DNA of 64,000 nucleotides from Escherichia coli (GTDB lineage Bacteria > Pseudomonadota > Gammaproteobacteria > Enterobacterales > Enterobacteriaceae), in assembly GCF_003334355.1 (NCBI RefSeq), contig NZ_QOWP01000008.1, one strand, 5' to 3'. This document shows positions 4,124-17,264 of the stretch, one piece after another. The notes beneath the pieces were generated by a model that did not search any database, was not told the origin of the DNA, and worked only from the letters and a program-made list of their open reading frames with translations. Position 1 is the stretch's first letter. Every line of letters starts with the position of its first letter. The translations under genes were made by a program, and so were the position numbers.

Positions 4124-5268
4124 AAATCACCAAAATTACCACGTATCGTTTACCTCCCCGCTGGATGTTCCTGAAAATTGAAACCGATGAAGGCGTGGTC
4201 GGTTGGGGCGAGCCCGTGATCGAAGGCCGCGCCCGTACGGTGGAAGCGGCAGTTCACGAGCTGGGTGACTATTTGATTGGTCAGGATCCATCGCGCATCA
4301 ATGACTTATGGCAAGTGATGTATCGCGCCGGATTCTATCGCGGCGGTCCGATCCTGATGAGCGCCATCGCCGGGATTGACCAGGCGTTATGGGATATCAA
4401 AGGTAAAGTGCTGAATGCGCCGGTCTGGCAACTGATGGGCGGCCTGGTTCGCGACAAAATTAAAGCCTACAGTTGGGTTGGCGGCGATCGTCCGGCGGAT
4501 GTTATCGACGGCATTAAAACGCTACGCGAAATCGGCTTCGATACCTTCAAACTGAACGGTTGTGAAGAACTGGGGCTAATTGATAACTCCCGCGCGGTAG
4601 ATGCGGCGGTTAACACCGTGGCACAAATTCGTGAAGCTTTTGGCAATCAGATTGAGTTTGGTCTTGATTTCCACGGTCGCGTCAGCGCGCCGATGGCGAA
4701 AGTGCTGATTAAAGAACTGGAGCCGTATCGCCCGCTGTTTATTGAGGAGCCGGTGCTGGCGGAACAAGCCGAATACTACCCGAAACTGGCGGCACAAACG
4801 CATATTCCACTGGCGGCGGGTGAACGCATGTTCTCACGCTTCGATTTTAAACGCGTGCTGGAGGCAGGCGGTATTTCGATTCTGCAACCGGATCTCTCCC
4901 ACGCGGGCGGTATTACCGAATGCTACAAAATCGCCGGAATGGCAGAAGCCTATGACGTGACCCTTGCGCCGCACTGTCCGCTCGGACCGATTGCACTGGC
5001 GGCTTGCCTGCATATCGACTTTGTTTCCTATAACGCCGTACTTCAGGAACAAAGTATGGGAATTCATTACAACAAAGGCGCGGAGTTACTCGACTTTGTG
5101 AAAAACAAAGAAGACTTCAGCATGGTCGGCGGCTTCTTTAAACCGTTAACGAAACCGGGCTTAGGCGTGGAAATCGACGAAGCTAAAGTGATTGAGTTCA
5201 GTAAAAATGCCCCGGACTGGCGTAATCCGCTCTGGCGTCATGAAGATAACAGCGTAGCAGAGTGGTAA
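4120..5268 (+). CDS. dgoD: D-galactonate dehydratase (enolase superfamily)
   Basis: 382-aa ORF; 4-nt overlap with dgoA. Confidence 0.9.
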
Positions 5269-10844: not shown

Positions 10845-12506
10845 ATGAGTGATATAGCATTAACGGTCAGTATTTTGGCTTTGGTGGCAGTCGTCGGTTT
10901 GTTTATCGGCAACGTCAAATTTCGCGGCATAGGATTAGGTATTGGCGGCGTGCTGTTTGGTGGGATCATCGTCGGCCATTTTGTTTCTCAGGCGGGGATG
11001 ACATTAAGTAGCGATATGCTGCATGTTATTCAGGAATTTGGCCTGATTCTGTTCGTTTATACTATCGGGATTCAGGTAGGGCCGGGCTTCTTTGCCTCAT
11101 TGCGCGTCTCCGGATTACGCCTCAACCTGTTTGCTGTTCTGATCGTCATCATCGGTGGTCTGGTTACCGCCATCCTGCATAAACTGTTTGATATTCCACT
11201 GCCGGTAGTGCTGGGGATTTTCTCCGGTGCGGTAACCAATACGCCAGCGCTGGGGGCAGGGCAGCAGATCTTGCGCGACTTGGGTACACCAATGGAAATG
11301 GTCGATCAGATGGGGATGAGTTACGCGATGGCGTATCCATTCGGCATTTGCGGGATATTGTTCACCATGTGGATGTTGCGGGTTATTTTCCGCGTCAATG
11401 TCGAGACAGAAGCCCAGCAGCACGAGTCTTCACGCACCAATGGCGGCGCGCTGATCAAGACTATCAATATTCGCGTTGAGAACCCTAACCTGCATGATTT
11501 AGCCATTAAAGATGTACCGATTCTCAACGGCGACAAAATTATCTGCTCGCGTCTGAAACGAGAAGAAACCCTAAAAGTACCTTCGCCAGATACCATTATC
11601 CAACTGGGCGATTTGCTGCATCTGGTGGGGCAGCCAGCGGATTTACATAATGCGCAACTGGTGATTGGTCAGGAGGTCGATACCTCGCTGTCCACGAAAG
11701 GCACTGATTTGCGCGTCGAGCGTGTGGTGGTCACCAATGAAAACGTGCTTGGTAAGCGTATTCGCGACCTGCATTTTAAAGAACGCTATGACGTTGTTAT
11801 CTCGCGCCTGAACCGTGCCGGGGTCGAACTGGTCGCCAGTGGCGATATCAGCCTGCAGTTCGGCGATATCCTCAATCTGGTGGGGCGTCCGTCCGCAATT
11901 GATGCCGTTGCCAATGTGCTGGGGAATGCGCAGCAAAAACTGCAACAGGTTCAGATGCTGCCAGTGTTTATTGGCATCGGGCTAGGCGTATTGTTAGGTT
12001 CTATTCCCGTCTTTGTGCCAGGATTCCCGGCCGCGTTGAAACTGGGGCTGGCGGGCGGACCGCTGATTATGGCGTTGATCCTCGGGCGTATCGGCAGTAT
12101 CGGCAAGCTGTACTGGTTTATGCCGCCAAGCGCCAACCTCGCGCTGCGGGAGCTGGGGATCGTGCTGTTCCTCTCGGTCGTTGGTCTGAAATCTGGTGGG
12201 GATTTTGTGAATACCCTGGTCAATGGCGAAGGGCTAAGCTGGATTGGTTATGGTGCCCTGATCACCGCCGTTCCGCTGATTACTGTTGGCATTCTGGCGC
12301 GGATGTTAGCCAAAATGAATTACCTGACCATGTGCGGGATGCTGGCAGGTTCCATGACCGATCCTCCGGCGCTGGCGTTTGCTAATAATCTTCATCCAAC
12401 CAGCGGTGCGGCGGCGCTCTCTTACGCCACTGTCTATCCGTTGGTAATGTTCCTGCGCATTATCACCCCCCAATTACTGGCGGTGCTCTTCTGGAGTATC
12501 GGTTAA
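10845..12506 (+). CDS. yidE: Putative AAE-family transporter YidE (two RCK_C/TrkA-C domains)
   Basis: ORF 10821..12506; start at [12 protein letters not shown] gives 553 aa. Confidence 0.85.
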
Positions 12507-13140
12507 CTCTTTTCCGGGTGGAGTCGCCGTAAATGGTACTCCACCTGGTATTCGCTGGCATTTCTGAACATCACTGAATAATTCAAAAACTCCCCGCTCT
12601 CGCTATATGACAACGAGGTTATCCGCAGCAGTGGCGTGTGTTCCGCTACCTTCATTTGCCGCGCCAGCAGTCTATCGGCGAGCACTGGCGTCAGGCTTTC
12701 ATAATTACCGCCAATCAAAATCCCGCACTCTTGTTCAATATATTCAAACTTCGACCCTTCCAGATGTTGCAGCGAAAGATTACGGAACAGTTTTACCGGC
12801 ATATAGCTGTCTTCCAGCATCAGCGGTTTCCCTTCCACAAAACGAACGCGACGGGAGAAGTAGATCTGCTCGTTGATTTGAATCCGTAACTGGCTGGCAA
12901 TGGCCGGAGGCGCAGGCATGATTTCAAAAATCAGCACCTGGCTGGTGACCGTTTTTCCCTGCCGTGGCGGCGGACCACCAATCCCCACGCTACCAGCAGG
13001 TCAATGGCTTTACGGATGGTCATCCGCGATACCGCAAATTCTTCCGCCAACTTTTTTTCACCGGGAAGAAGGCTATTTAGCGTGAAATCTGCGGAATTAA
13101 GTCGAATTCTTAACCGCTCCGCAATGCTTTTGTAGATCAT
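12503..13140 (-). pseudogene. yidP: GntR/HutC-family regulator YidP, apparently frameshifted (HTH part 12931..13140 in one frame, UTRA part 12503..12988 in another)
   Basis: Two overlapping minus-strand ORFs in different frames: N-terminal HTH (MIYKSIAERL...VVRRHG) and C-terminal UTRA effector domain; the frame switch lies near a ggg-aaaaa-cgg run at ~12950-12960. Confidence 0.6.
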
Positions 13141-13435
13141 CTCTAGATCTCTTTTTTGCCTGCAAGCCCGGGTAATGCGCCCACAAGTTCTGCTTAATCG
13201 ATTGAAAAAACATCTTTTTTTTAAACATGTGTTCGATGCTGTGTACCAGTGCTCACAGATGTCTACTTTTTCGCGAAAACGTAGATCTCTACCGCCCAAC
13301 GAAAAGCATGAAAGCGATCACGAATCCCATTGGGTCGTCATGTTCTGCCGATCGCATCTTCCTATCCTCGCTCCAGGCCTGCCGCATAACCAATCAGGCT
13401 TCCTACTTACAGAATTGAGAAAAGAGGATGTGGAA

Positions 13436-17264
<3,829 letters not shown>

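Follow-up and report, generated by a model that had tools for sequence, protein, structure and literature searches.

In the 64,000-nt stretch of Escherichia coli DNA analysed here (the window), yidP is a pseudogene. The gene encodes a regulator of the GntR family and HutC subfamily, and it has suffered a clean deletion of 79 nt between two copies of the 7-bp direct repeat ACGGCAG, without any homopolymer indel. We regard it as highly probable that this is a true inherited null allele, and this is our best overall explanation of the locus, including the regulatory role proposed below for the intact protein.

Reading frames of yidP and the 79-nt deletion

The pseudogene occupies positions 12503..13140 on the minus strand, a span of 638 nt, and it is read in two frames. 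The first one goes from the yidP ATG at 13140 to a TGA at 12933..12931 (12931..13140, minus strand) and encodes 69 amino acids, namely native residues 1-60, with the helix-turn-helix and the first wing strand, followed by nine out-of-frame residues, REKRSPARC. The second one, the UTRA frame, goes from 12988 to a stop codon at 12505..12503 on the same strand and encodes 161 amino acids. Inside it, the alignment and the Pfam UTRA match place the native-frame remnant, Arg86-Ser238 plus the stop codon, at 12503..12964; this remnant carries the UTRA effector/dimerisation domain and no longer shares the frame of the start codon. The two frames are out of phase, as 13140-12988 = 152 is not a multiple of 3, and they overlap by 58 nt (12931..12988). 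The split is thus a direct property of the sequence and does not depend on any statistical signal. A first-pass annotation made from the letters alone had already described this overlapping pair on the minus strand and read it as a disrupted yidP of GntR/HutC type, with HTH and UTRA domains; the open reading frames agree with the former, and the Pfam and NCBIfam domains together with the locus match agree with the latter.

Regarding the domains, intact yidP has 717 nt and encodes 238 amino acids, where PF00392 (GntR, winged helix-turn-helix) covers residues 3-64 (E 7e-21) and PF07702 (UTRA) covers residues 87-224 (E 2e-30). In the window allele these two domains are no longer on one continuous polypeptide, because they are in different frames after the 79-nt deletion. 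The 69-aa fragment matched the GntR-family NCBIfam models only in their N-terminal HTH (profile positions ~2-61), and the 161-aa fragment only in the C-terminal effector region (profile positions ~87-232).

The nature of the lesion became clear by comparison with other genomes. A megablast of window positions 12450..13350 against 5426 complete E. coli genomes matched the locus in 5417 of them, and the matches were of two sizes: a single piece of 901 nt, or two pieces spanning 980 nt and annotated as 'yidP'. We aligned the window and a second broken allele (strain 720632) with two intact alleles (AR_0069 and a K-12-like strain), and both broken alleles were without exactly 79 nt that are found in the two intact ones. 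In AR_0069 the missing stretch has the structure ACGGCAG, 72 nt, ACGGCAG, so that one copy of the repeat and the sequence between the copies (72+7 nt) account for the 79 nt lost. The single copy that remains in the window, at 12965..12959 on the minus strand, marks the deletion junction. On either side of the deletion, the yidP flanks of the window are 100% and 99.8% identical in nucleotides to those of AR_0069. Since the intact alleles show the two ACGGCAG copies bounding the missing 79 nt, the lesion is a deletion with the footprint of slippage between short direct repeats: two copies in the ancestral sequence, one copy kept and the interval gone.

We infer from this repeat architecture that replication slippage, or other short-homology recombination, occurred between the ACGGCAG copies 79 nt apart. 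Such an event would remove one repeat copy with the intervening sequence and put the UTRA domain out of frame. The residues lost are Ser61-Lys85, plus one extra base, which correspond to the second wing beta-strand and to all of the linker that leads to the UTRA domain. Translation from the normal start codon would give a 69-aa HTH stub without dimerisation/effector domain as the sole product, and no functional YidP would be made. Some residual activity may persist in this stub, or in a UTRA fragment re-initiated at an ATG located at 12919..12917, 11 nt past the stop codon of the stub.

Frequency of the allele and other readings of the split

In order to count both alleles in the same 5426 complete genomes, we used two probes: a junction probe of 45 nt, centred on the junction and with neither half alone able to seed a megablast hit, and an intact-allele probe of 75 nt taken from within the deleted segment. 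The junction 45-mer was found in 252 genomes (~5%), always chromosomal and in one place in each. The deleted segment, which means an intact yidP, was found in 4020. Both groups add up to 4272 genomes, that is, all but one of the 4273 genomes holding the region. Among the carriers of the deletion there are E. coli B REL606, BL21(DE3) and many of its derivatives, strain C, ATCC 11303, ST361, and animal and environmental isolates. In the 12 carriers whose annotation we inspected, PGAP had labelled the gene as a 'frameshifted' GntR-family pseudogene in all 12 (ECB_RS18860 in REL606). The pseudogenes of REL606, BL21(DE3) and C have the identical junction and the same 638-nt span as the window, although REL606 and C differ from it in having the other flanking haplotype, described below, and an intact EIICB gene. 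The intact E. coli yidP (b3684) is in the same locus, between yidE and glvC, and the difference is that the window is without the 79 nt and therefore has a pseudogene allele instead of a 238-aa gene. The allele is a segregating natural polymorphism and an ordinary pseudogene already flagged in public annotation. Its direct importance is small, as it is a common allele of an uncharacterised regulator.

These data also decide between the deletion and a one-base indel at the G3-A5 homopolymer, possibly a sequencing error, as the first-pass annotation had proposed. The frame does change within a few bases of the GGGAAAAA run (12952..12959, minus strand), and a net one-base frameshift is what a reader without reference sequences sees. 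However, the alignment columns of this run are identical in all four sequences compared, intact and broken, and what differs between them is a 79-nt gap, with locus matches of 901 versus 980 nt. The alignment of positions 12450-13350 to intact yidP, which had been proposed in order to locate the indel, located the 79-nt deletion instead. Furthermore, a sequencing or assembly artefact should not be reproducible in independent assemblies, and the same junction occurs in 252 independently sequenced complete genomes that were produced in many laboratories and on many platforms, REL606 and several BL21 assemblies among them. A sequencing artefact is therefore excluded, and an indel at the homopolymer is hardly credible at all. 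As 252 genomes share the identical junction, resequencing would not give a single open reading frame, and the corrected type of lesion means that no effort needs to be wasted on resequencing the homopolymer.

A different reading would be a functional split, in which programmed -1 frameshifting on GAA-AAA-C, or termination-reinitiation, gives a working or two-piece regulator. If tRNA-Lys slipped by -1 on A-AAA-A, the HTH would be fused to the protein from Thr90 on, the ATG at 12919..12917 is in frame for reinitiation, and a 212-aa variant of YidP with an in-frame deletion, to which we return below, is annotated as a normal protein in Shigella boydii. Nevertheless, the two-frame layout is a derived one, because 4020 E. 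coli genomes and the homologues of other genera have a continuous gene of 238-255 aa, whereas orthologues of a programmed frameshift gene should keep the two frames and have a slippery site where these overlap. In 12931..12988 there is no heptamer of the canonical slippery form X-XXY-YYZ, and no Shine-Dalgarno precedes the internal ATG. Moreover, a fused product would still lack all of the linker as well as the second wing strand. We consider a functional split very improbable.

YidP as the putative local regulator of the glv operon

YidP appears in a list of K-12 GntR regulators that are uncharacterised (PMC4797297). Our search of the literature on yidP function, on the glv phenotype of B strains and on the regulator of the Klebsiella agl genes returned only the description as 'uncharacterised GntR regulator' and the cryptic glv genes of K-12, and an experimental paper on YidP binding or control of the glv promoter was not found in it.

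The first-pass annotation had noted that yidP sits next to the glv PTS locus and might regulate it, and the neighbourhood is as it said, with yidP in divergent orientation. The next gene, at 13436..15052 on the plus strand, is a glvC-type PTS EIICB gene of 538 codons, and it is followed by a 6-phospho-alpha-glucosidase gene (GH4, 440 aa) at 15052..16374 on the plus strand. YidP homologues with 73-81% identity were found in Raoultella, Klebsiella, Kosakonia, Cronobacter, Pantoea and Serratia, and JGI gives some of the homologues the name 'GntR family glv operon transcriptional regulator', which E. coli yidP has in KEGG/JGI. In Raoultella the yidP-type gene is divergent from EIICB and GH4 genes within the same yidE/ibpAB flanks. 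In Serratia aquatilis the same three-gene arrangement is found amid unrelated flanking genes. Thus, the order of a yidP orthologue divergent from EIICB and then GH4 holds in E. coli, Raoultella and Serratia aquatilis, and its presence amid unrelated flanks in the last of these is good comparative evidence that the yidP, EIICB and GH4 genes form one unit. Likewise, this conserved divergent synteny supports YidP as a putative local regulator of the glv operon.

The intergenic region between yidP and glvC has several candidate sites. The first is a 17+17-nt palindrome, AGATGTCTACTTTTTCG/CGAAAACGTAGATCTCT, at 13257..13290, of the form TCTAC-N14-GTAGA, which is a candidate YidP operator. The half-sites TCTAC and GTAGA are conserved in E. 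coli, Raoultella and Serratia, and the spacer between them varies. The pattern TCTAC-N14-20-GTAGA has one match in the 64-kb window, versus 0.06 expected by chance. A related sequence, AGATCTAGAG, is found at 13141..13150, directly upstream of the yidP start codon, and is a candidate site as well. There is also a conserved block, ATTCGTGATCGC(A/T)TTCATG(C/G)TTTT, at ~13302..13325, which is essentially invariant in E. coli, Raoultella and Serratia aquatilis, while the rest of the intergenic region has diverged. This block loosely resembles a CRP-type site (GTGA-N6-TCA) and may be a candidate operator/activator site. A scan of the yidP-glvC intergenic region for promoters and terminators found nothing.

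The closest solved structure is that of NagR/YvoA of Bacillus subtilis (PDB 2WV0, 4U0V, 4WWC), which aligns to YidP in its full length (phmmer E 3e-24, 89 bits), and the isolated 78-aa DNA-binding construct of YvoA aligns to YidP residues 2-65. Both proteins share the HutC-subfamily architecture of a winged HTH plus UTRA, and their sequence similarity runs over the full length, although it is distant and the operon is a different one. NagR/YvoA is a local repressor of a PTS sugar operon that is released by a phosphorylated sugar. By analogy, YidP would repress the divergent glvC-glvA alpha-glucoside PTS operon, and the repression would be relieved by a phosphorylated alpha-glucoside. Repression of glvC-glvA is the most likely role of YidP in view of the synteny, this HutC-family precedent and the intergenic palindrome.

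As the carriers of the deletion lack YidP, those which keep intact structural genes probably express glvC-glvA without YidP control. In REL606, BL21 and strain C, yidP is naturally null and the EIICB and phospho-alpha-glucosidase genes are intact. B strains and C are consequently ready-made test strains for the targets of YidP and for the use of isomaltulose-type sugars.

Erosion of the module and origins of the yidP deletions

The window has a second lesion. The amber in the EIICB gene reported by the first-pass annotation was found again at codon 170 of glvC, where Gln170 is changed from CAG to TAG (13943..13945) by a C to T substitution at 13943; strain 720632 has CAG. The glucosidase gene of the window is intact as an open reading frame, and the same protein is annotated as intact in REL606 and strain C. 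Because of the amber, the pathway of the window is predicted to be non-functional whatever the state of yidP, with EIICB knocked out independently of the regulator.

With a probe able to seed on the T allele only, we found the amber in 15 of the 5426 complete E. coli genomes. The amber and the yidP deletion occur together in at least six of these (AH04, CX12, CX08, AH02, CT01 and PSS-12), and TW11681, 504239 and 7784 have the amber with an intact yidP. We considered whether the amber arose inside the deletion lineage, and these last three genomes rule it out. Since the amber occurs both with and without the yidP deletion, the two lesions are not nested, which implies that recombination or recurrent C-to-T mutation shuffled them. 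The amber was seen on at least three haplotype backgrounds, and all four combinations of amber and yidP deletion are expected or seen.

Other genomes combine the lesions differently. The window has the 79-nt deletion in yidP, the amber at codon 170 of glvC and an intact glucosidase gene. K-12-like genomes have an intact yidP, a stop at codon 369 of glvC, and in glvG a 489-nt deletion plus a 1-nt deletion. AR_0069 has intact yidP and glvC, and its glucosidase gene has the 489-nt and 1-nt deletions and a stop at codon 407. TW11681 and 504239 have an intact yidP, the glvC amber at codon 170 and a 1-nt insertion in the glucosidase gene. Finally, in ST131-type genomes (~1144) yidP, glvC and the glucosidase gene are all absent. 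In these genomes yidL abuts yidE, ~90 nt apart (4957..5047 of the fetched locus), and ~46 nt of the 3' end of yidP are left, which suggests that the module was deleted there instead of never having been present.

The glv genes of K-12 have been described as cryptic/truncated (PMC5309279, citing Reizer 1994, Thompson 1995, 2001). Both the cryptic K-12 glvCBG and the functional aglA/aglB of Klebsiella pneumoniae correspond to the same EIICB and GH4 pair adjoining yidP; the K-12 module has an intact yidP with glvC and glvG broken, whereas in the window yidP is broken, glvC stops at codon 170 and the glucosidase gene is intact. About 489 nt of the glucosidase gene (window 15653..16144) are absent from K-12-like and AR_0069-like genomes. 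As K-12-like genomes are without a stretch that is kept in the window, the K-12 'glvG' is, judging by this comparison, a deletion remnant of the gene that is full length in the window. The full-length glucosidase segment was found in 1653 of the ~4273 module-bearing genomes, including O157:H7 with an intact yidP. A strict link between the loss of yidP and an intact operon was also considered, and it is ruled out by these 1653 genomes.

Both structural genes were intact in nine of the 12 RefSeq carriers that we inspected; of the other three, two had the K-12-type glucosidase deletion and one had both genes broken. Therefore, in most of the carriers inspected the regulator alone has been lost, and the window is in a minority subgroup which is also without EIICB. 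The first-pass annotation had suggested that the whole module is decaying. This stands for the species, where lesions of many independent kinds and outright absence were found, and it agrees with the EIICB amber of the window, but it does not extend to the glucosidase gene of the window, which is intact, nor to the nine of 12 other carriers that keep both structural genes. Across E. coli the module is dispensable and is eroding in many independent ways; as a mosaic of independent lesions, yidP-glvC-glvA is a tidy example of the erosion of an accessory pathway.

Regarding the origin of the 79-nt deletion, we compared 21 loci by their SNPs in the 1.2 kb and 2.8 kb surrounding yidP, and the deletion was found on two clearly different groups of flanking haplotypes. 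Group 1 comprises the window, 720632, NCTC10444, 3502, 98197 and A29; group 2 comprises REL606, C, D2, HCM-25C-3, PS2C, 600029 and PEC408. Many sites on both sides of the deletion distinguish them, and one of these markers, +159 (A versus G), is as close as 17 nt to the junction. An intact allele whose flanks are nearly identical to those of group 1 exists in TW11681 and 504239. For group 2, a probe requiring G-T at +159/+160 matched 268 genomes, of which we sampled 60 at even spacing: yidP was intact in 31 and deleted in 29. Three of the intact G-T genomes were compared with group 2, and their match to it did not extend over the whole flank. These patterns would fit either two slippage events or a single one moved by a short recombination tract.

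A further deletion affects the same part of the gene. In S. boydii and some E. coli, YidP has 212 aa as the result of an in-frame deletion of 78 nt, which removes residues 56-81 (wing and linker). This deletion lies between two copies of a 10-bp repeat, GGGCTGGTGG, and overlaps the segment of the 79-nt deletion. Both are deletions between short direct repeats in the same wing-plus-linker segment, but the S. boydii one used another repeat, is in frame and arose on a K-12-like haplotype, where GGGCTGGTGG is a perfect repeat and the ACGGCAG repeat is imperfect (ACGGTAG). In S. boydii CP026836 (5001..5639 of the fetched locus) the variant is annotated as an ordinary protein; probably the regulator does not function and was missed when pseudogenes were flagged. 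This overlapping and independent deletion supports a slippage-prone segment, and the part of yidP coding for the wing and linker appears to be deletion-prone. Four more YidP sequences, from metagenome or draft assemblies, have different in-frame internal deletions of 16-33 residues, and they may be real alleles or assembly artefacts.

A selective explanation would be that the loss of the repressor was favoured because an intact alpha-glucoside PTS operon becomes constitutive without it, and that this loss occurred repeatedly at a site prone to slippage. It would agree with the EIICB and phospho-alpha-glucosidase genes being both intact in nine of the 12 sampled carriers, with the presence of the deletion on two flanking haplotypes and of intact counterparts for both local haplotypes, and with the independent, overlapping 78-nt deletion of S. 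boydii and the other in-frame deletions in metagenome-derived sequences. However, the two haplotypes are explained just as well by a single origin and later short-tract recombination, and the counts of carriers are inflated by laboratory derivatives of B and by clonal sampling. Besides, the S. boydii allele adjoins an already broken EIICB gene, which fits plain decay, and the window itself then lost EIICB. Weighing these points, we think that selected loss of the repressor is unlikely, at about one chance among five. The fuller version, in which YidP loss is both recurrent and selected, the direct repeats of the wing/linker segment are a mutational hot spot for the 79-nt, the 78-nt and the further in-frame deletions, and E. 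coli B and C would thereby have a constitutive and intact isomaltulose-type PTS, a pathway that K-12 lacks, seems somewhat less likely still. An adaptive loss of the repressor in general is possible, with a likelihood between those of these two versions.

At the other end of the gene, yidP (minus strand, end at 12503) meets the convergent yidE (plus strand, end at 12506), and the stop codons of the two genes overlap by 4 nt.
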